A DNA stretch of 19,401 nt from a virus, in UHGV virus genome UHGV-0140152. One strand, 5' to 3'. Below, one piece after another: positions 5,205 through 13,292 of the stretch. Numbering within the stretch: position 1 is the first letter of the stretch; each line of letters starts with the position of its first letter. The translations under genes were made by a program, and so were the position numbers. A model generated the notes under the pieces. The model searched no databases and was not told the origin of the DNA. It saw only the letters and a list, made by a program, of their open reading frames with translations.

Positions 5205-5440
5205 GTTGACTAAATCTCATAATAACCTGAGGTCAATTTCTTCTGTTTGTGACCTCAGGTTAATTTCCTTTATTTATAACCTTAACTTATTAGGCTGCAT
5301 TTTATTCCGCGTCATCGCTTCATTATTTATGTATATGGCGACCTTATTTAATTACGCCCACCTGAACTTACTTCTTTTCCGCCTGTTTCATTCAGCGATA
5401 ATTAACGCATCGAAACGAAACTAAACGAAAGGAGTTAAAA
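5205..5440 (+). promoter_or_regulatory. cassette leader 1 (homologous to 6200-6342)
   Basis: 12-bp inverted repeats aacctgaggtca / tgacctcaggtt, conserved block cctgaacttacttcttttccgcctgtttcattcagcgat and a conserved RBS context. Confidence 0.55.
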
Positions 5441-6165: not shown

Positions 6166-6197
6166 GCCACCAGTTAACGCTGGTGGCTTCAAGTTTT
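6166..6197 (+). terminator. intrinsic terminator
   Basis: GCCACCAG ttaacg CTGGTGGC followed by TTCAAGTTTT. Confidence 0.65.
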
Positions 6198-6199
6198 GC

Positions 6200-6342
6200 T
6201 CTCATCACCTCAGGTCAAATTTCCTCGTTTGCAACCTCAGGTCAATTTAAGAATGATATCACCTGTATCCCTGAACTTACTTCTTTTCTGCCTGTTTCAT
6301 TCAGCGATGATTATTACATCGAAAACAAACGAGGAATTAAAA
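6200..6342 (+). promoter_or_regulatory. cassette leader 2 (homologous to 5205-5440)
   Basis: Two acctcaggtcaa repeats, conserved block cctgaacttacttcttttctgcctgtttcattcagcgat and GAGGA RBS. Confidence 0.55.
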
Positions 6343-7269
6343 ATGAAACCAGTATTTTTGGGGCGAATTGATATTAGTGAATTGTTTTCAGTTAGAGATG
6401 GGTTCCAATATGACTGTGATTGCCTTGAACTTAATGGTCTTGAACGTGAATACAGATTGGCTATTGTGAATGATGGTAAGAAGACATTTTCTGTCGAATG
6501 TTTTGAAAATACTTACTTTAAGCAGGTGTTGAGAATAAGACAGCATGTGGAGATGTCAATTCGGGAAAACATCAAAAATAAATGTGAGTTTCTTGTGGTT
6601 AAAAATGAAGCAGATGAAATAAACTTTGTTACGTTCACTGATAGTGGTCGATTGGCTATGCTGGAGCTATTTCAGCTGATCGTTTCTAATAACAGTATAA
6701 CAGAAGCCTTGAACAGTCTTTCAACTATAGTATCAAGAGAAAGAGAAAACACTGGCGCTTTAATTGTAGAGGAGCTAGATGGAATACTCGAGAAGATCAA
6801 GAATAAAGAGCTGATTATAGAATATGGCAAGGAAAGTAGGAAAAATAATTTACATTCAGCTTTTCACTCCCCATATGTTGAGCGTTTGAATGGTTTGGCT
6901 GCTTTTGTTAATTTGGACTTTAATAGATTTTTTAGTTCTTTTTTTACAGAGTGTGGGCTTGTTATTGTTGAGGTAAATAATGAGAACGATGTCCCCAAAA
7001 TTATAGTACATTCGATGCCTGATATATCTCTCAATGAAATTGGGGACAAACTGGAGAATTTATACGATGTAAAAAGCATGGAAGAACTCATAGAGTATCT
7101 GGCCATAAATGCGGTAGCCATGGCTGATAATGATGTGTTTGGGGTTGGTGCACTGCATGAAGGTTTTCTTGACGCCCTTGAGCTTTACGGGACTGCTCGC
7201 TGGTTTCTGTCAGGATTAGTGGATGATGCACCTTTACTCATCAATACAGATTATTTTTATTCCAGTTGA
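6343..7269 (+). CDS. hypothetical protein (308 aa)
   Basis: In-frame ATG within track ORF 6196..7269, placed after the conserved leader and GAGGA RBS. No family recognised. Confidence 0.7.
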   Translation: MKPVFLGRIDISELFSVRDGFQYDCDCLELNGLEREYRLAIVNDGKKTFSVECFENTYFKQVLRIRQHVEMSIRENIKNKCEFLVVKNEADEINFVTFTDSGRLAMLELFQLIVSNNSITEALNSLSTIVSRERENTGALIVEELDGILEKIKNKELIIEYGKESRKNNLHSAFHSPYVERLNGLAAFVNLDFNRFFSSFFTECGLVIVEVNNENDVPKIIVHSMPDISLNEIGDKLENLYDVKSMEELIEYLAINAVAMADNDVFGVGALHEGFLDALELYGTARWFLSGLVDDAPLLINTDYFYSS

Positions 7270-7275
7270 AAACAA

Positions 7276-7300
7276 GGCCACCACTGCTGGTGGCCTTAAA
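7276..7300 (+). terminator. putative terminator hairpin
   Basis: GGCCACCA ctgc TGGTGGCC hairpin; the T-tract is weak. Confidence 0.45.
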
Positions 7301-7472: not shown

Positions 7473-7955
7473 ATGAATTTTATCGCTACTGTAAACGCAC
7501 CCGCACATGGCAATATCGCTGTAACGTTCTCTGACACTGAAAAACGAGTACTTGGTGCATGGCGCGACAATGAGACGGTAGAACTGTCAGCACAAGAAAA
7601 ATGCATTATTGCACGCGACATCATTGGCAATCGTCGTTACTCGCGGGTATTTGAGAAAGCGTATGTGGTAAATTCTGGGTTCGGAACGTTCGTCTTTCCG
7701 GTGCGCTCCGGGCGATTCTGCCAGTCCAAGCTGATTGAGTTCGCTACGCAGATTTCTGTCTGGATTAAAACTCAATCGTCGTTCAAATTTTCCGACGATG
7801 AAGCAGTATCGCAGGGGATGCGGATCGCCAACAATGCAATTAAATGCAAAAACATTACGTATACCGCTGGCGTTGACACATGGAGACTGTTTTGCGCTAA
7901 CTTTATGCTGAATGTATACGCAAGCAACCGCATCCACATCCTTGATGGCGTGTAA
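7473..7955 (+). CDS. hypothetical protein (160 aa)
   Basis: Track ORF; AAGGAA RBS; leader shares taacaccaacaagagaacaatttgtt with the 2166 gene. Confidence 0.7.
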   Translation: MNFIATVNAPAHGNIAVTFSDTEKRVLGAWRDNETVELSAQEKCIIARDIIGNRRYSRVFEKAYVVNSGFGTFVFPVRSGRFCQSKLIEFATQISVWIKTQSSFKFSDDEAVSQGMRIANNAIKCKNITYTAGVDTWRLFCANFMLNVYASNRIHILDGV

Positions 7956-7970
7956 CTGAGAAGAGGGCCA

Positions 7971-8085
7971 GAAACGGCCCTTTCTCTATAGCCACCAGCT
8001 GCCGCAGGGAAATTTTCAGAAACGGCTAGGAACGCATTCATGAGCCGACGGGAAACGGCCAGGATTTTTTCGGGAAACGGCTACA
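7971..8085. repeat. iteron-like array, 4 copies of GAAACGGC
   Basis: GAAACGGC at about 7973, 8021, 8054 and 8076; the same core as the 1691-1802 array. The first copy sits in the loop of a GGGCC...GGCCC hairpin. Confidence 0.55.
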
Positions 8086-8207
8086 TTTGCCTTTATGTAG
8101 AAAAAACATCGGGAAGCTGGTGGAATCCAATCAGCGGTTGTCGGACAGGTGAGCGGGGAAAATCATTATGACTCTCGTCACCTGAGACATCCAGATTTCT
8201 TTCATAG

Positions 8208-8260
8208 CGTAATCACATACGTGATTAAGTGGTGTGATTATGTGAAAAATCACGCGCACA
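8208..8260. repeat. cluster of GTGATT/AATCAC inverted repeats
   Basis: TAATCAC-atac-GTGATTA and GTGATT-atgtgaaa-AATCAC within 50 bp, in a convergent intergenic region. Confidence 0.5.
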
Positions 8261-8429
8261 TAATACGCGAGCGGATACGGAACAAAACAAAATGCAGATT
8301 CGCGCCGACAAATAAACGCGGATCATAAAGCAAGACTAAAAGCCAATGATTAACTATGCGCTATAGCGCAATATAACGCATTTTAAGCGCGTTAATGTGT
8401 TAAGTAATGGGTATGTACTGGCAAGGATA

Positions 8430-8570
8430 TAAAAGCGCGTCCATGGCGTTATTTTGGCGCTTATTTTTATGTTGTTGGAGTGAGTTAAAGACAATAAAAA
8501 AGCGCCATCATTGGCGCGTTATGGTGGGAGTATTGGAAACGAAAAAAGCGCCCATAGTGGGCGCTCGATT
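8430..8570. repeat. tandem GC-stem hairpins of the GCGCC(C)A-N-TGGGCGC family
   Basis: gcgccatcattggcgc and gcgcccatagtgggcgc, each flanked by A/T runs; plausibly bidirectional terminators. Confidence 0.5.
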
Positions 8571-8801
8571 TTATTTATGTAAACTGATTTCAAATCCCAT
8601 TTCTACAAACGCTTTTAACATTAAAAATATATCAGCGTCGTTCACGTCTGCTTTTTTCCGCTCCTGGTCGCTCAATAAGTCAATTTTGCGCGTCGTTTCG
8701 TCTATAAGCTCGACTGCGCGCCCAGCGTAACCAGCGATCCCAGCGATGCGATTAACATAATATTCATTATGGACGTTAACGCCAGCGATTAAAATAATCA
8801 T
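8571..8801 (-). CDS. small hypothetical protein (76 aa)
   Basis: Track ORF; AAGGAG RBS on the minus strand immediately after the 8824-8841 hairpin. Confidence 0.6.
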   Translation of the reverse strand: MIILIAGVNVHNEYYVNRIAGIAGYAGRAVELIDETTRKIDLLSDQERKKADVNDADIFLMLKAFVEMGFEISLHK

Positions 8802-8823
8802 GCTTTAAAAACTCCTTTAAATG

Positions 8824-8841
8824 CGCCCATATTTGGGCGCA
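8824..8841. repeat. hairpin GCGCCCATATTTGGGCGC (identical copy at 9577-9594)
   Basis: Perfect 7-bp stem between the stop of 8856..9503 and the RBS of 8571..8801. Confidence 0.6.
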
Positions 8842-8855
8842 TGATTTATATGGTA

Positions 8856-9503
8856 TTATTCAAAATATGGAAATGCAGAATTTTCTTCATGATCTAATAC
8901 GAAAGTTTTTTCATTAATATAATTTGGCGCATTATCGCCAAATGATTCTAGTGGTTCGAGATGATTGAAATCATCTTTTTTAATAAAGTAGGATATATAA
9001 TAGATACCATCGTGTAAATCAGCCAAACCACACCAAATATAATAGCCAATAGGATAACATGCAGGACCACGATTCACATAAACTGTAATTTTTCCGCTTA
9101 ATAAATCCATCTCAGCAAAAAAAGCTAATCCGCTTTTTTCCTCTTCTCCTTCTTTTTCTCTGATTTTTCCGTTTAGAACGTCAGCACTTTGAATAAACCA
9201 CGCTCTAGTAAAATCCGCGTTAACATATGTAGCAAATTCGCCAAAGTCGCAATTTTTGCGCAAGTTGGGTAAATCCTCGATTAAATCGAGATTGATATTT
9301 AATTGCGCTGTATTTTCAGCAATAATTAGCTCTGCTTTCGTTAATTCCGTGTTATTAAATTCTGGCTTTTTTTCTGGTAATTTGTGCACTACTTCTTTGA
9401 TTTTGTCAGCGAATTTAATTTTTGATTTAATCAATGGAAGACGAGATTCAGCCATCTCTACGAAAGCAGAGATAAAAGATTCGCAAACAGTAAAAGTTTT
9501 CAT
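8856..9503 (-). CDS. hypothetical protein (215 aa); distant paralog of 5441..6160
   Basis: Track ORF; GAGGAA RBS. Shares ...DFTRAWF...FFAEMDLLSGKITV... and EPLESFGD with 5441..6160. Confidence 0.75.
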   Translation of the reverse strand: MKTFTVCESFISAFVEMAESRLPLIKSKIKFADKIKEVVHKLPEKKPEFNNTELTKAELIIAENTAQLNINLDLIEDLPNLRKNCDFGEFATYVNADFTRAWFIQSADVLNGKIREKEGEEEKSGLAFFAEMDLLSGKITVYVNRGPACYPIGYYIWCGLADLHDGIYYISYFIKKDDFNHLEPLESFGDNAPNYINEKTFVLDHEENSAFPYFE

Positions 9504-9536
9504 ATTAAATTCCTCAATTAAAATCTGAACCAGATG

Positions 9537-9594
9537 AATAAAGCTAATATTAGCTTTATTCCGAGTTTTATCTCATGCGCCCATATTTGGGCGC
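9537..9594. repeat. perfect 24-bp palindrome plus second copy of the GCGCCCATATTTGGGCGC hairpin
   Basis: AATAAAGCTAATATTAGCTTTATT (9537-9560) and gcgcccatatttgggcgc (9577-9594), between the genes at 9608..10258 and 8856..9503. Confidence 0.6.
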
Positions 9595-9607
9595 TTGATT
9601 CCATTAA

Positions 9608-10258
9608 TTACGCTTTAAAAGCATCAGCTAGATAATTGTAGAAATCTTTTTTAATGAAGCGATATTGTTGAGTACCAGCTTTGGCGCTTCCCATTCCTTT
9701 GACTTTCTCAACAAGTCCGAGACGTTCGCAAAGATTGATTAGCTGGTTAGCTTGAGTATAGCCAGCGTCTAAGCGTAAATCATTTGCTCGCTTAACTTCA
9801 TTCATTAAATCAAAAACAGCGCCATTAGTAAAAACTTCTACTTCGTCTTTGATCATGTGAACAAGTGCAAACACGCGTGATCCGCTCATATCGTCTTTGG
9901 AGTACTCGCATTTACCAGCTTTGATAGATTTAACCAGATAAACTAATTTTTCCAGTGAGTAACTGTTAGTCATCGCTTCGCGGAAAAACACTTCTGGTGC
10001 TTGTTTGCTTGCTTTAATCGCAAAGTAAAACACAGCAGACAATTTTTCGTCGTTAACAGCAGACAAAATGTTATTAGAGAAATATTTTAACTTTGTAGAA
10101 GCAGCGCGAAGATTATCTTTATCGTTTTTGGTCAGCGCGCCAGTGCTATTAAGAAGTTCATTCTTTTGCCCCAAGTCGTTAGCTTTTGCACCCAGCTCAG
10201 CAGCAACAATATTAGCAGCTTCAACGATGTTTTTTTTAGATAATATAATGTTGGTCAT
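9608..10258 (-). CDS. hypothetical protein (216 aa)
   Basis: Track ORF; AGGA RBS about 9 nt upstream on the minus strand. No family recognised. Confidence 0.7.
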   Translation of the reverse strand: MTNIILSKKNIVEAANIVAAELGAKANDLGQKNELLNSTGALTKNDKDNLRAASTKLKYFSNNILSAVNDEKLSAVFYFAIKASKQAPEVFFREAMTNSYSLEKLVYLVKSIKAGKCEYSKDDMSGSRVFALVHMIKDEVEVFTNGAVFDLMNEVKRANDLRLDAGYTQANQLINLCERLGLVEKVKGMGSAKAGTQQYRFIKKDFYNYLADAFKA

Positions 10259-10512
10259 GATTTCAATCCTTAGATCAAATTAGAAAATTTATTTCGTTCT
10301 ATCGTTAGCGTGTTCGCTTTCGACGAGTTCAATTATCGATACGCAAAAAAAGATTGCAAGTGTTTTTTCTTAGTTTTTTACAGGGACGAAAGTCCTAGAA
10401 ATAAAAGCGAGATCGTCGAAGGTGTTCCCTAAATAAATAATCTACTCCGGCTTTTAACCTTATATATTTATACGGAGTGGAATAGGGGGTATTAAATGAA
10501 TGGCGTGTAAAA

Positions 10513-10538
10513 TAATAACCGGACTTAGCCGGTTATTA
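10513..10538 (-). terminator. putative terminator of the minus-strand block
   Basis: TAATAACCGG acttag CCGGTTATTA 10-bp stem just past the stop of 10550..11113, with a T-rich run following on the minus strand. Confidence 0.5.
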
Positions 10539-10549
10539 CCCTTATAGAT

Positions 10550-11113
10550 TTAAAATGGAAGGATTCGGTCAACCCAATCGAAGAGAACAATCATTCTTGC
10601 ATGTTCCCTGATTTTCATCGTCACCTGACAAGCATCAACGCCTAACGACACTCCCTCTATTTCACGGCCATCCGCCATGTAGACCCTTATAGATCTGCCG
10701 TTTTGATGAGCTTTGCGACATATCTTAAAAAAGTCACGACGTGATGGCTGGTTGTTCACGTAGTCAGGATGTACGGTAAGCCTGTCCGCAAAGTCCCCAT
10801 CTACTTCTGGAGGTATAATCGTTTCTATAGAGCTAACTTTCCCAAGAGGAAGACGAACTCGACGCTCTTTGCTTCTTGGAACGGGTGATAGATCAAGTTT
10901 GTTGCGTGATGGTAGTGTTCCCTGTACATACATGTTGAATACCTGTCCATCTTCCATCGTGACTTTTACAGGAACAGAGTGTGCCCTCCAGAACATCAAG
11001 GTATGTTCCACATTAGAATAGTCTCGCGGCCATACTTCAGCCGGTATGCCGTATGTAATATCTTTCGTCGTCATATCATTATAAAGTGGTTGGCAATATG
11101 TCCATTGTACCAT
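10550..11113 (-). CDS. hypothetical protein (187 aa; possibly 174 aa from an internal ATG at about 11074)
   Basis: Track ORF. The 11113 start overlaps the lipoprotein gene by 35 nt; the alternative ATG lies a few nt after the lipoprotein stop. No clear RBS for either. Confidence 0.55.
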   Translation of the reverse strand: MVQWTYCQPLYNDMTTKDITYGIPAEVWPRDYSNVEHTLMFWRAHSVPVKVTMEDGQVFNMYVQGTLPSRNKLDLSPVPRSKERRVRLPLGKVSSIETIIPPEVDGDFADRLTVHPDYVNNQPSRRDFFKICRKAHQNGRSIRVYMADGREIEGVSLGVDACQVTMKIREHARMIVLFDWVDRILPF

Positions 11114-11498
11114 CCCAGGTAGTGAAAACCCGATATGTTTTCGAGTCGCCCTGCTTTAGCTTTATTTCTCGTTCCATCCTGGAGGGGTTAAATGCGCAAA
11201 GACCTGAACTTTCAATTGATGTCCCAACGATCCACTCTCCTTCGTTAAGGTAGAAAGTTGCTTTTTCACCAGGTTCTAGCTTTGCAACCGTTTCTCCATT
11301 GATGAAAATGGAAGCGTTACATGCAGAACCAACCAGCCCTTTGTCTCGAACTATTGTTAAACTAGACTCATGTGGTGTTTGATATTTAAATATTCTGCTT
11401 TGAGGTGCATCCTTTGCCTTTGAAACAGATATAGACGAAGACGAACATCCAATTAGTGATGTGGTTAGTGTTAGAATAATTAGGTTTGTTACTTTCAT
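11079..11498 (-). CDS. putative lipoprotein (139 aa)
   Basis: N-terminus MKVTNLIILTLTTSLIGCSSS has a hydrophobic core and an L-I-G-C lipobox, indicating a signal peptidase II substrate. Confidence 0.7.
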   Translation of the reverse strand: MKVTNLIILTLTTSLIGCSSSSISVSKAKDAPQSRIFKYQTPHESSLTIVRDKGLVGSACNASIFINGETVAKLEPGEKATFYLNEGEWIVGTSIESSGLCAFNPSRMEREIKLKQGDSKTYRVFTTWDGTMDILPTTL

Positions 11499-11514
11499 AT
11501 TTGTCTGACTATGA

Positions 11515-12066
11515 TTAATAGTTAACTTGGGTTCTGTTGTAAATGTCTATTAAGAAATCGTCCTGCTTTATGTTTTTACAGGTTTTGTCGAAGGTTAATT
11601 CACCTGATAATATGCAGGCGTTGTATTTTTCGATAAAAATATTTAATGCCTGCCAATTTTTGAAAAGAAAAGAGAAACCATATGACGACTCGCTGCCGTT
11701 TATCAACCCTCGTGCGCTGGGATATTTGTATAAATTTGAATGTAGCTCTAATTTACCAGGGGCAACGTCGCCACAGGAATTCATAATGACGAACATTTTG
11801 GATATATCAAAAGGATAAAAAACTATGCCGCAATTTGTCCTGTTGCCTTTAATATCCTTCACGTAAATATAGTGCTCGTAACAATCTTTACGCGAGGCAT
11901 TTAACCTGTATTGTATTAGTTTGTGCTCTCCTTTTTGAGAGGGTATTAGGTATCGTGTACGCTTGTCTAAGCAGGATTTCGTCTTTGTACGGTATTGCGA
12001 CATACTGCTCTTTATTTCCGCTGCACTTAGAAAGTTCTCATTAAAAGGCAAATGTCCCATTTGCAC
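11515..12066 (-). CDS. hypothetical protein (183 aa) homologous to the N-terminal domain of the HNH protein at 12312..13292
   Basis: GGAGG RBS 5 nt upstream. ...YGFSFLFKNWQALNIFIEKYNACILSGEL aligns with ...LGYSFAFKNRLSIEMFLITLIDYIDSGKI of the HNH protein. No nuclease motif. Confidence 0.7.
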   Translation of the reverse strand: MQMGHLPFNENFLSAAEIKSSMSQYRTKTKSCLDKRTRYLIPSQKGEHKLIQYRLNASRKDCYEHYIYVKDIKGNRTNCGIVFYPFDISKMFVIMNSCGDVAPGKLELHSNLYKYPSARGLINGSESSYGFSFLFKNWQALNIFIEKYNACILSGELTFDKTCKNIKQDDFLIDIYNRTQVNY

Positions 12067-12152
12067 CTCCGGTTCTTAAGCATAGATAAGCCTACAAAAT
12101 TAATTCAGTCGATCAAGATCTTTTTTCAGCCGGAAGTTTATGTATCAAGAAG

Positions 12153-12168
12153 TGTGATCAAGTTCACA
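12153..12168. promoter_or_regulatory. perfect CRP-consensus-like palindrome TGTGA-N6-TCACA, about 95 bp upstream of 11515..12066
   Basis: tgtgatcaagttcaca inside a roughly 110-bp segment homologous to 13293-13415. Confidence 0.45.
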
Positions 12169-12311
12169 TACTGCTTTGCCAGAAGAATACCATATGCAAA
12201 ACATTCTATTGCTGTTAAAATTTAATCGTTCAGACATAAGGAAGCCCTATACCCTCGACAAATCTTTCTGGTATTGTCGAGGGCATGTTTCACATTTATA
12301 GGTAGATAGCG

Positions 12312-13292
12312 TTAATTGGTGTTTTTGTTCTTCTCTTTTTTGCTAATTTCATCACATGTAAGGTTCATTATGTCTATGTTTTCTTGCTTTTGAAGGTTGC
12401 CGACAATTTTTTTGCGCAATTCATAAAATCGCTCGCGTGGTATAGCTTCCTTGTTGCCGTTGATGTGAAGTATTGCGTGACAGCTAGGGCAGACGGCAAT
12501 CAGATCTGTTTTTGGGTTCACGCTTCGTGCATCTTCGCCTTGTGAAAGTGGGACGATGTGGTGAGCGTGTAGCAGCGTTTTCGTTTCTTTGCCGTCAATT
12601 TCCTTGCCGTATATTTCCGACATCGTTCTGCAACATAATTGACACCTGTAGTCTGCGTTTGCCAGAACGTCATTCCTTAACCCGGATACGCGGCTACGAT
12701 GTTGCGACTGGATTAATCTTGTTTCGCCCTCTATATATTCCTCAACTTCTTCTTTCTGGAGGTCGTAGCTGATTTCTTCTTGAGTCGGATGGACTTTTTT
12801 GTATAGAAGATCAAGATATTTAATGTCCTCTGTTATATATTTGGAATCCTCTAGCGAGGATATTTTTCCTGAGTCTATGTAGTCAATTAATGTAATAAGG
12901 AACATCTCTATCGATAGCCTGTTTTTAAAGGCAAACGAATATCCAAGATGTCTTCTATCTCCTGAATGAATTGGCGTCCAATGAGATTTCTCAATTTTTT
13001 GTGGTGTTACGCAGATACCTTTGCCGATATTGTTTACATGTTCCAATAATTGATAAACAGAATTAATGCGGTAAGCATGTGTTACTAAAGAATTTATTTT
13101 TCTTGTGCCGACGGAGGATTTTGTCATAACAACATGATGAGATATTTGTTTTTTTAAAATCAAATCATACGATGTAGCTTTTTGGTTTTCGCCTTTGTCG
13201 GTTTTTTTTATTAAATTTAGTTTTTTATTAGAGGCTATTTTCTCTATTTCTTCTCTAACTTCTTTTATCGTCATGTAAGTTTCTTTTGTCAT
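12312..13292 (-). CDS. HNH endonuclease, McrA-like C-terminal domain with an unrecognised N-terminal domain (326 aa)
   Basis: C-terminus YRCQLCC...LLHAHHIVPLSQGEDARSVNPKTDLIAVCPSCHAILH is an HNH motif with two Cys pairs, arranged like McrA. AT-rich gene. Confidence 0.8.
   Translation of the reverse strand: MTKETYMTIKEVREEIEKIASNKKLNLIKKTDKGENQKATSYDLILKKQISHHVVMTKSSVGTRKINSLVTHAYRINSVYQLLEHVNNIGKGICVTPQKIEKSHWTPIHSGDRRHLGYSFAFKNRLSIEMFLITLIDYIDSGKISSLEDSKYITEDIKYLDLLYKKVHPTQEEISYDLQKEEVEEYIEGETRLIQSQHRSRVSGLRNDVLANADYRCQLCCRTMSEIYGKEIDGKETKTLLHAHHIVPLSQGEDARSVNPKTDLIAVCPSCHAILHINGNKEAIPRERFYELRKKIVGNLQKQENIDIMNLTCDEISKKEKNKNTN

Follow-up and report, generated by a model that had tools for sequence, protein, structure and literature searches.

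In T4-type phages, ORFans are flanked by terminators known as promoter-early stem-loops (PeSLs), at which insertions and deletions arise through recombination (Arbiol et al. 2010, PMC2839356; Comeau et al. 2014, PMC4122927). PeSLs are the closest analogue of the hairpins described here, which follow the gene p216 in the tail of an operon of an SSU5-like phage-plasmid. In both cases the stem-loops are repeated and intergenic, with a stop codon on one side and the following Shine-Dalgarno sequence on the other, and serve as terminators or attenuators, a role that is predicted from sequence at the present locus. Both flank ORFans and mark events of insertion, deletion and replacement between related phages, and for both the proposed mechanism is recombination between copies. 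However, PeSLs are composite elements with a strong sigma-70 early promoter, and none was predicted at the present hairpins; they amount to about 50 per genome over hyperplastic regions, in contrast to 3-4 copies in one operon tail; and they belong to T4-type myoviruses rather than to a temperate siphovirus phage-plasmid.

Other systems share part of these features. Morons are accessory genes of temperate phages, both lambdoid and other, and the classical ones carry a promoter of their own, with expression while the prophage is repressed. The inserted gene of the present locus (orf215) is likewise an accessory gene with its own predicted terminator, placed between two core genes, but it has no predicted promoter. 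Intrinsic terminators share with the hairpins a GC-rich stem of 6-8 bp, a loop of 3-4 nt and, at the two distal hairpins (T2 and T3), a U6 tract; the two identical 18-mers differ from them in lacking a U-tract and having a UTR or RBS behind. Integron attC sites are also hairpin repeats at the 3' end of promoter-less cassettes, which all point the same way behind a shared promoter. In contrast to the imperfect attC structures of 57-141 nt, the present hairpin is a perfect stem-loop of 18 nt, without R''/L''/L'/R' boxes and without GTTRRRY in its flanks (AATCA[A/T] and AT...); the eight ORFs scanned included no integron integrase, and the cassettes were not seen elsewhere. REP/BIME sequences are high-copy and dispersed, whereas the present hairpins occur at a single locus.

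Inversion of hairpin loops is known, among others, from plastid non-coding hairpins. In rRNA hairpins it occurs by template switching (Moerman et al. 2022, PMC8794818), and the present hairpins resemble these in carrying reverse-complement loops on otherwise identical hairpins, although here they are predicted terminators of phage-plasmids.

Gene gain and loss between hairpins belongs to the kinds of genome shuffling already known from phages and does not constitute a new system. Enterobacteriaceae commonly carry SSU5-like phage-plasmids, and since resistance and other cargo are spread by phage-plasmids, the way in which these elements take up accessory genes has practical interest. The locus would be a compact, natural case in which copies of a short terminator hairpin bound the accessory genes that are added, swapped or deleted. 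Gene exchange would resemble that of T4-type phages, except that the phage is temperate and plasmid-like and the promoter component is missing. It also yields a clear data set of hairpin-loop inversions.

The window and its genes

The window (the whole stretch of 19,401 nt that was analysed) is a contig from a metagenome and belongs to an SSU5/pHCM2/pLF82-like phage-plasmid. The hairpin region was matched by 679 plasmids in PLSDB, and for most relatives the query coverage was 71%, split in two pieces. No tRNAs were found, and the whole window gave 0 Rfam matches at gathering thresholds; the best sub-threshold match in 8380-9700 reached 23 bits, against a threshold of 56.

The p216 gene (9608..10258, minus strand), the first of the hairpin-punctuated series, is an SSU5-like core gene of phrog_1513, a family of unknown function (PHROG match, E = 3e-111), with 102 homologues in Enterobacteriaceae phage-plasmids. 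Its AF2 model (pLDDT 79.9) showed a weakly winged-helix-like C-terminus, and the best fold match was not significant (E = 0.09). A consensus scan found one candidate sigma-70 promoter upstream of p216 (10332..10359, minus strand; TTGCAA, 16 nt, GATAAT), which was the sole minus-strand promoter-like site between the hairpins and a FljA-like gene for an RNA-binding repressor (10550-11113); the same scan found none in 8802-9607. At the other end of the series, p76 (8571..8801, minus strand) is a small conserved gene of phrog_1585 (PHROG match, E = 4e-39). It is optional, being present in some relatives only and elsewhere swapped for a 67-aa gene (phrog_6145), joined with this gene, duplicated or absent.

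Located between p216 and p76 is orf215 (8856..9503, minus strand), an ORFan of 215 aa that is the cargo of an insertion. It had no Pfam, PHROG or PADLOC match, and a search of 1.84 billion representatives gave no remote homologues. Its homologues form its own cluster only, which comes from a small number of SSU5-like elements of E. coli and E. albertii and always from the p216 locus; none of 5,426 complete E. coli RefSeq genomes matched its cassette. No recombination intermediate was found, and no donor either, because the gene is known at the p216 locus only. The dN/dS of orf215 against its relatives was 0.83-1.13, the gene was frameshifted in one of them (L052), and its single-sequence AF2 model was unusable (pLDDT 40.7). 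An origin of orf215 as a diverged p216 duplicate was rejected (BLASTP E = 0.1 over 10 residues; hhalign probability 0.7%); resemblances between the two comprise similar lengths, a common FIKKD.FN.L motif and a 30-nt repeat at 80% identity.

Hairpins of the p216 operon tail

The sequence GCGCCCATATTTGGGCGC was found exactly at 8823-8840 and 9577-9594, with no further sites in the 19.4-kb window at up to 3 mismatches and a chance expectation of 0.01 matches (200 shuffles). The original prediction of an identical 18-bp hairpin after two consecutive minus-strand genes was correct for the presence of both exact copies, but had placed one of them a base off, at 8824-8841 instead of 8823-8840. The conserved flanks that it described are part of a 26-nt direct repeat, ATGCGCCCATATTTGGGCGC[A/T]TGATT, at 8821-8846 and 9575-9600, with 25/26 identical positions and a period of 754 bp.

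The upstream copy, H1 (9575..9600, minus strand; stem-loop 9577-9594), has a 7-bp GC-rich stem and a 4-nt loop, and lies 13 nt past the p216 stop codon. Its predicted RNA stability is -16.2 kcal/mol (z = -4.7 against shuffles) and its tail on the transcribed strand, AUGAGAUAAAAC, is without a U-tract. The downstream copy, H1' (8821..8846, minus strand; stem-loop 8823-8840), located at the 3' end of the inserted orf215, has a stem that can be extended to 9 bp at 8821-8842 and a predicted stability of -15.9 kcal/mol; behind it comes AUUUAAAGGAG, the p76 RBS, which is only a weak U-tract. The native tails of the hairpins are AUGAGAU, AUUUAAAGG and UUUUUUCG. The first 18-mer lies between a stop codon (9608-9610) and the motif GAGGAA (9510-9515), and the second between a stop codon (8856-8858) and the motif AAGGAG (8812-8817). 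The placement of each hairpin between a stop codon and the next RBS, as originally claimed, is therefore right for the two 18-mers, but not for the hairpins at 8502-8565, which are the last in the series and have no gene after them.

These distal hairpins are two predicted terminators. T2 (8536..8565, minus strand; stem-loop 8547-8565) consists of the stem-loop AGCGCCCACUAUGGGCGCU followed by UUUUUCGUUUC on the transcribed strand; its core, GCGCCCATAGTGGGCGC at 8548-8564, has the same stem as H1 and H1', its stability is -15.5 kcal/mol, and a T5-T7 tail is kept in relatives. T3 (8496..8517, minus strand; stem-loop 8502-8517) consists of the stem-loop GCGCCAAUGAUGGCGC followed by U6 (8496-8501), with a stability of -10.7 kcal/mol. 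The window contains three copies of the GCGCCCA type, and T3 is a GCGCCA variant (GCGCCATCATTGGCGC at 8502-8517). T2 and T3 are found within a diverged 46-nt tandem repeat (8476-8506 and 8522-8552), and U6 tracts trail both of them, a few nt past the stop codon of the last gene, so that they look like canonical tandem intrinsic terminators. The z-scores of all four hairpins, taken as minus-strand RNA, ranged from -4.7 to -2.8 against shuffles. Related hairpins had been reported to pile up at 8430-8570; two good ones are present (8502-8517 and 8548-8564), but a third candidate (8430..8465, minus strand) was no better than shuffled sequence (-7.0 kcal/mol, z = -1.1; 25/200 shuffles folded equally well).

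The 5' UTR of the inserted gene (9504..9576, minus strand) contains the GAGGAA motif as its RBS, a small second hairpin and the perfect AT-rich 24-bp palindrome AATAAAGCTAATATTAGCTTTATT, which was exact and unique at 9537-9560, as first described. This palindrome folds as an 11-bp AU stem; it is a part of the orf215 5' UTR that is loosely conserved (one mismatch among E. coli relatives, two in E. albertii) and shows no link to the hairpin system. The evidence for a conserved operator was too thin, with three lineages only and 0, 1 and 2 mismatches.

Layout of the locus in related elements

The locus was compared in 41 and a further 80 IMG/VR sequences, which together gave 87 non-redundant loci. 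Cyrano has its p216 and p76 homologues next to each other, separated by one hairpin, and it is exactly here that orf215 and a second hairpin are found in the window, in seven E. albertii plasmids and in a few E. coli contigs. Plasmid p3RM15116 of E. albertii RM15116 is arranged in the same way as the window. Alignments with Cyrano (L001), E. albertii (L002) and E. coli (L046) delimited a 754-bp segment (8841..9594, minus strand) that is missing from Cyrano/pLF82-type relatives and comprises the 5' UTR, orf215 and one hairpin copy. The repeat allows the insertion boundaries to be set at any point of the hairpin.

The GCGCCCA-loop-TGGGCGC hairpin was nearly always found 3' of p216 in the 87 non-redundant relatives. 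The layouts that follow p216 include a gene-free one, with a hairpin with T6 and a second terminator; a hairpin, the 67-aa gene and a hairpin with T6; the same arrangement with p76 in place of the 67-aa gene; two p76 paralogues with a hairpin behind each (L127 and L079, a p76b-hairpin-p76a array in the former); and one with a distant 67-aa variant. Perfect 44-nt terminator units were found as three tandem repeats in L106, and two modules were joined without a hairpin between them in L003 and L063. Insertions begin directly past one hairpin and finish with the next, and the modules keep their own sequence up to the hairpin, beyond which comes the next RBS or a T-run; at least five different arrangements have boundaries that match the hairpin exactly, down to the nucleotide. 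Cassette boundaries were among the roles offered by the original prediction, which called for a comparison with homologous loci. The comparative data strongly favour this role, with orf215 and one hairpin inserted relative to Cyrano/pLF82 and several other layouts bounded by the same hairpin.

In relatives without a downstream gene the p216 hairpin carries a T6 tract, and the mean leading T-run was 2 for hairpins with a gene behind, compared with 5.4 for the others. A function as terminators or attenuators, also proposed at the outset, agrees with the GC-rich stems and U6 of T2 and T3 and with the T6 of the gene-free relatives; the two 18-mers themselves are without a U-tract.

The p216 gene of the window is a mosaic, in which nt 51-500 have 98-100% identity to the L005 type and nt 501-651 have 94% identity to the E. 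coli L046 type. The one allelic breakpoint mapped in this lineage is inside p216, ~150 nt upstream of the stop codon (near 9758). The hairpin was accordingly not supported as the allelic recombination breakpoint here, and exchange is therefore not confined to hairpins.

Conservation and distribution of the hairpin

The stem was 95-100% conserved in 87 unique loci, at p216 identities of 47-100%, and showed no compensatory changes, while flanks and loops varied. An invariant stem without covariation would not be expected for a purely structural terminator; in a control hairpin family from the same loci the GC core was likewise invariant. The loops occur as exact reverse complements (CTA/TAG, TCA/TGA, TAA/TTA, AATA/TATT, TTGT/ACAA and ATGA/TCAT), and among close relatives loop inversions outnumbered all other loop changes combined. 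The E. coli relatives have CTA, the family-typical loop, in the upstream copy and AATA in the downstream one, and both copies have the same loop in the window (AATA/AATA) and in E. albertii (TATT/TATT). This loop exchange sits within flanks that are otherwise 92-94% identical, indicating that the hairpin copies exchange sequence with each other.

In the 108-kb Cyrano genome the hairpin family has three copies, all at the p216 locus. From IMG/VR, 79 of the 80 matches fetched with a 19-mer were the p216 locus, and the exact 18-mer had one unrelated match. A genome-wide search for the 18-mer, which had been put forward as a check, stayed at chance level outside the p216 locus, with 12 matches in 596 Gb of genomes, all in unrelated taxa, against ~17 estimated by chance. 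A dispersed mobile repeat (REP, MITE or attC-like) was therefore ruled out, since the family is found at one locus only and the 18-mer at chance level.

Probable gene gain and loss between hairpin copies

The observed hairpin repeats are probably copies of one transcription-terminator stem-loop at the operon end of an SSU5-like phage-plasmid. We consider it likely that this local family of intrinsic-terminator stem-loops (GCGCCCA, 3-4 nt loop, TGGGCGC) punctuates the 3' end of the operon, and that accessory genes are gained and lost between its copies. The operon tail would be composed of RBS-ORF-hairpin modules, with p216 first, zero to two optional small genes after it and two U-tract terminators last. 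With its own hairpin copy, orf215 would have been placed between p216 and p76, leaving identical hairpins 754 bp apart. The 17-26 nt of identity between hairpin copies, together with the common TTT/AAGGAG linker, could provide short homology at which recombination or replication slippage would add, delete or swap modules. The same exchange would homogenise the hairpin copies, as is suggested because the upstream copy in the window has the cassette-type loop. No sign of a dedicated recombinase was found at the locus.

Transcription would begin upstream of p216. The internal hairpins, which have lost most of the U-tract, would let RNA polymerase pass and could be weak attenuators and probably 3' protective stem-loops, and the last two hairpins would end transcription. 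Since expression of the downstream genes needs read-through, the two 18-mers would be leaky at best, and orf215 appears dependent on read-through from p216. We infer termination, read-through and RNA stabilisation at the hairpins from their sequence, and recombination at the hairpin from the indel boundaries.

Alternative explanations

The hairpins could instead be signals for transcription or RNA stability only, alike by common descent or tandem duplication and with no part in gene gain and loss, which we regard as rather unlikely. The coincidence of indel boundaries would then arise because insertions that respect gene boundaries survive. Such a role agrees with the canonical terminator sequences of the distal copies, with the resemblance of T2 and T3 to a diverged tandem duplication, with the mapped breakpoint within p216, away from the hairpin, and with one arrangement that has no hairpin between two modules. 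However, it does not account well for the nucleotide-exact boundaries of at least five arrangements or for the loops swapped between copies inside 92-94% identical flanks, and the 44-nt units of L106 and the L127 array are expected of unequal exchange between copies; a GCCACC...GGTGGC hairpin family has the same pattern. It is improbable that the exact stem is kept because the hairpin is the target of a dedicated capture mechanism, either cleavage by an SbcCD-like nuclease of the element with UvsX/RecA-type repair, or recognition by p216. If this were true, the p216 operon tail would be a small integrase-free cassette array sampling ORFans, and the same logic would hold at other hairpin families in the accessory region.

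The invariance of the stem at p216 identities of 47-100%, without covariation and with varying loops and flanks, could also reflect a sequence-specific RNA or DNA element recognised by p216 or the FljA-like protein, which would control translation or stability of the gene with its RBS 6-10 nt downstream. The hairpin is 3' of p216 in nearly all relatives, with the RBS directly 3' of it, and the two candidate proteins are the weakly winged-helix-like p216 and the product of 10550-11113. We hold this to be quite improbable, as no fold match reached significance (best E = 0.09), the free flipping of the loop is at odds with its usual place in a specific RNA recognition site, the same hairpin has the sequence of a plain terminator with T6 where there is no downstream gene, and the control family is equally invariant in its GC core. 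Processing of the internal hairpins by RNase III or RNase E, splitting the polycistronic RNA into separately stable mRNAs, would suit stable intercistronic stem-loops between stop codon and RBS, and RNase III could also act on the AU-rich 11-bp stem that the palindrome forms, but a stem of 7-9 bp is short for this enzyme and there was no Rfam match; processing, which is compatible with terminator copies that bound gained and lost genes, is very unlikely. Identical hairpins around a single promoter-less ORFan, with alternative cassettes in one orientation, also recall dedicated site-specific or transposase-type systems that mobilise the gene between them (integron attC, REP/RAYT or IS200/IS605-type ends). 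To these we give hardly any credence: the perfect 18-nt stem-loop has no R/L boxes, GTTRRRY core or extrahelical bases; no integrase, RAYT or TnpA was matched in the eight ORFs scanned (7473-13292), where the sole nuclease was an HNH gene ~3 kb from the locus, and the only integrase of Cyrano is ~58 kb away from the locus; the family is restricted to one locus, with the 18-mer at chance level; and orf215 was found in no other context.

Other hairpin families

The GCCACC...GGTGGC family, which is unrelated to the p216-tail hairpins, brackets another presence/absence gene in the window. A further hairpin family, AGGCGTCC...GGACGCCT, was observed in Cyrano.

Genes and hairpins of the p216 operon

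The window is an ENA metagenome contig from the SSU5/pHCM2/pLF82 phage-plasmid group, and matches to this region were found in Escherichia phage Cyrano (= pLF82), CMS-2020a, Klebsiella phage-plasmids and 679 PLSDB plasmids. Three minus-strand genes are located here: p216 (9608-10258, phrog_1513), orf215 (8856-9503), with no match in Pfam, PHROGs or PADLOC, and p76 (8571-8801, phrog_1585). The sole minus-strand promoter-like site near them lies upstream of p216 (10332-10359), none was found between the three genes, and the Shine-Dalgarno sequence of each downstream gene follows the preceding hairpin at a short distance, from which we infer that p216, orf215 and p76 probably form one transcription unit. 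The AF2 model of p216 is all-helical (pLDDT 79.9), and its C-terminal ~90 residues resemble winged-helix DNA-binding domains (PadR/LmrR, MarR and the ORC winged-helix), with a Foldseek E value of only ~0.1.

Two exact copies of the 18-mer GCGCCCATATTTGGGCGC were found in the window, at 9577-9594, as originally predicted, and at 8823-8840, one base off the predicted start; 0.01 matches were expected by shuffling, with up to three mismatches. The conserved flanks that had been described around the 18-mers correspond to a 26-nt direct repeat (8821-8846 and 9575-9600) with 25/26 identical positions and a period of 754 bp. Downstream of these copies are two hairpins with related stems, GCGCCCATAGTGGGCGC (8548-8564) and GCGCCATCATTGGCGC (8502-8517). 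When folded as minus-strand RNA, the four hairpins gave -16.2, -15.9, -15.5 and -10.7 kcal/mol, all far below shuffled controls. The original prediction of a hairpin pile-up at 8430-8570 holds for the two related hairpins and fails for 8430-8465, which folded no better than shuffles. The two putative terminal terminators sit inside a diverged 46-nt tandem repeat (8476-8506 and 8522-8552).

The second hairpin copy and the orf215 insertion

Cyrano has its p216 and p76 homologues side by side, with one hairpin between them (GGAATCTG-GCGCCCACTATGGGCGC-TTTTAAGGAGCTTAATCATG). Compared with Cyrano, the window retains the native left flank before the upstream hairpin copy and the native p76 RBS after the downstream copy, and contains an extra 754 bp comprising a 5' UTR, orf215 and one hairpin. 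The second hairpin copy is thus a mark of the orf215 insertion. Seven E. albertii plasmids and a few E. coli contigs share this insertion, in every case at the same locus; it was detected in none of the phage records and in none of 5,426 complete E. coli genomes. The E. coli relatives carry the family-typical CTA loop in the upstream hairpin and an AATA loop in the downstream hairpin only, which indicates that the AATA hairpin is the copy travelling with orf215. Both copies have AATA loops in the window and the reverse complement, TATT, in E. albertii, indicating that the hairpin copies exchange sequence.

No donor context for orf215 was found, and a search of 1.84 billion representative proteins returned only members of its own cluster, which makes orf215 a true ORFan. 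The dN/dS against relatives was 0.83-1.13 for orf215, 0.15-0.5 for p76 and 0.17 for p216, and orf215 is frameshifted in one E. coli plasmid (CP164746); this gene is either decaying or fast-evolving. A 30-nt repeat of 80% identity (8959-8988 and 9630-9659) encodes FIKKD(D)FN(H/Y)L in each of orf215 and p216; beyond this motif the two proteins are unrelated (BLASTP E = 0.1, hhalign probability 0.7%).

The predicted 24-bp palindrome (9537-9560) is indeed perfect, occurs only once and lies within the 73-nt 5' UTR of orf215, where it could form an 11-bp AU stem. Only three lineages could be compared: the version in the E. coli relatives contains a single mismatch, which RNA would still pair as G-U, and the E. 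albertii version contains two. The palindrome stands apart from the repeated hairpins.

Hairpin-bounded modules in related elements

Related loci were fetched from IMG/VR through p216 (n = 41) and through the 19-mer AGCGCCCACTATGGGCGCT (n = 80), and together with other fetched loci they yielded 87 non-redundant versions. Several layouts were found after p216: a hairpin with T6 and a second terminator, without a gene; a hairpin, a 67-aa gene (phrog_6145) and a hairpin with T6; a hairpin, p76 and a hairpin with T6; the 67-aa gene joined directly to p76, with no intervening hairpin; two p76 paralogues with a hairpin after each (L127 and L079); a distant variant of the 67-aa gene, where p216 is only 57% identical; and a 44-nt terminator unit present three times (L106), where p216 is 50% identical. 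In L106, a distant relative, these three units are perfect and stand in tandem; therefore, terminator units duplicate by slippage.

Each module has its own sequence up to the hairpin, which is followed on its 3' side by either the next RBS (TTTAAAGGAG, TTTTAAGGAG or TAGTTTTAAGGA) or a T-run (TTTTTTCG). The mean leading T-run was 2 where a gene comes after the hairpin, versus 5.4 for the remaining hairpins. RBS-ORF-hairpin modules could be gained and lost through exchange between hairpin copies, and internal hairpins would be tolerated only once termination is inefficient. The module boundaries and the T-run pattern are as expected under such exchange, and the T-run difference also fits the tolerance of inefficient internal copies.

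Two other hairpin families were found, one in the window and one in Cyrano. In the window, GCCACC...GGTGGC hairpins lie immediately 3' to three ORFs on the plus strand (2579-2595, 6166-6187 and 7277-7294), and an E. coli relative (L046) lacks the ~1.1-kb gene between the last two (window 6196-7269); at its junction (5207-5228) the left flank of one hairpin runs straight into a hairpin of the other type. This indel follows the same hairpin-bounded logic as the orf215 locus. In Cyrano another local family, AGGCGTCC...GGACGCCT, occurs after three neighbouring genes, for SSB, RecA-like and stomatin-like proteins (53807-53832, 57410-57429 and 58549-58568 in the record). Given both families, locally repeated terminators around optional genes look like a general feature of this element.

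Proposed recombination at the hairpins, and exchange in coding sequence

Synonymous divergence between the window and the E. coli relative was ~0.09-0.11 in orf215 and p76 and 1.08 in p216. The p216 gene is mosaic: over its last 150 nt it shares 94% identity with the E. coli/E. albertii allele, and over nt 51-500 it shares 98-100% with the L005 allele (protein cluster P0004, whose name refers to Cronobacter malonaticus). The changeover falls close to nt 500 of p216 (about position 9758 of the window) and not at the hairpin. Because this allelic breakpoint is inside p216, homologous exchange in the SSU5-like family also uses coding sequence. A putative role of the hairpin in recombination is supported by the presence/absence boundaries, which in relatives coincide with the hairpin, in agreement with the cassette-boundary option of the original prediction, and not by the breakpoint in p216.

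The 7+7 stem positions are 95-100% conserved in the 87 unique loci, across p216 identities of 47-100%, and showed no compensatory changes; only one or two copies with a mismatch and a few distant loci lacking the hairpin depart from this. The flanks are far more variable. Invariance of the stem might point to sequence-specific recognition; little weight is given to it since another hairpin family found in these loci, whose outer pairs covary, also keeps an invariant GC core. Loops are very often exact reverse complements of each other (CTA in 131 versus TAG in 19; also TCA/TGA, TAA/TTA and AATA/TATT; and TTGT/ACAA, ATGA/TCAT and TTGA/TCAA in the GCGCCA hairpin). Among hairpin pairs with 60-nt flanks at least 95% identical on both sides, the loop was the same in 368, exactly inverted in 87 and otherwise different in 51, which suggests frequent loop inversion in otherwise identical hairpins through intra-hairpin template switching, a process described previously (PMC8794818).

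Comparison with known systems

Readings of the hairpins as attC-, REP- or IS-type repeats would place them in a dispersed or mobile class, and several results argue against them. In the complete Cyrano genome (108 kb) the family occurs three times, all at the p216 locus, and the other 33 strong hairpins have different sequences; likewise, 79 of the 80 IMG/VR matches fetched with the 19-mer were this locus. The genome-wide search proposed for the exact 18-mer returned only chance-level matches outside the locus: one viral match, unrelated, and 12 matches in 596 Gb of genomes, each single-copy and all in unrelated taxa, versus roughly 17 estimated by chance. No Rfam family matched, and no integrase or transposase was found among eight neighbouring ORFs.

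The closest described system is the promoter-early stem-loop (PeSL) of T4-type phages, in which stem-loop terminators, placed after a stop codon and ahead of the following RBS, border ORFans and mediate indels (PMC2839356, PMC4122927). The window hairpins share the stem-loop, its position and the indel boundaries. However, they lack a promoter, the defining part of a PeSL, and unlike PeSLs they are not dispersed, and therefore are not PeSLs in the strict sense. From their sequence context they are best described as putative intrinsic-terminator stem-loops reused as module linkers in the tail of a phage-plasmid operon, with exchange at the hairpins as a plausible mechanism. No description of terminator hairpins as module linkers in SSU5-like elements was found in the literature searched. 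The hairpin finding is real and gives no indication of a new kind of system.

Neighbouring features

Upstream of p216, on the same strand, is a gene for an FljA-like protein (10550-11113; Pfam Flag1_repress, E = 1e-70); FljA is known to repress phase-1 flagellin. The N-terminal region of a 326-aa HNH endonuclease (12312-13292) is a weak match to phrog_31250, to which the neighbouring 183-aa ORF (11515-12066) also belongs; here the window differs from Cyrano, where a lipoprotein gene occupies the other strand. Four GAAACGGC-containing repeats (7968-8081), GTGATTA direct repeats (8221-8244) and several inverted repeats lie in the non-coding gap 7956-8430, between the convergent genes 7473-7955 (plus) and 8571-8801 (minus), which was read only up to the weak hairpin at 8430. 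The repeats in this gap may bind proteins, for example as iterons or as a centromere-like site.
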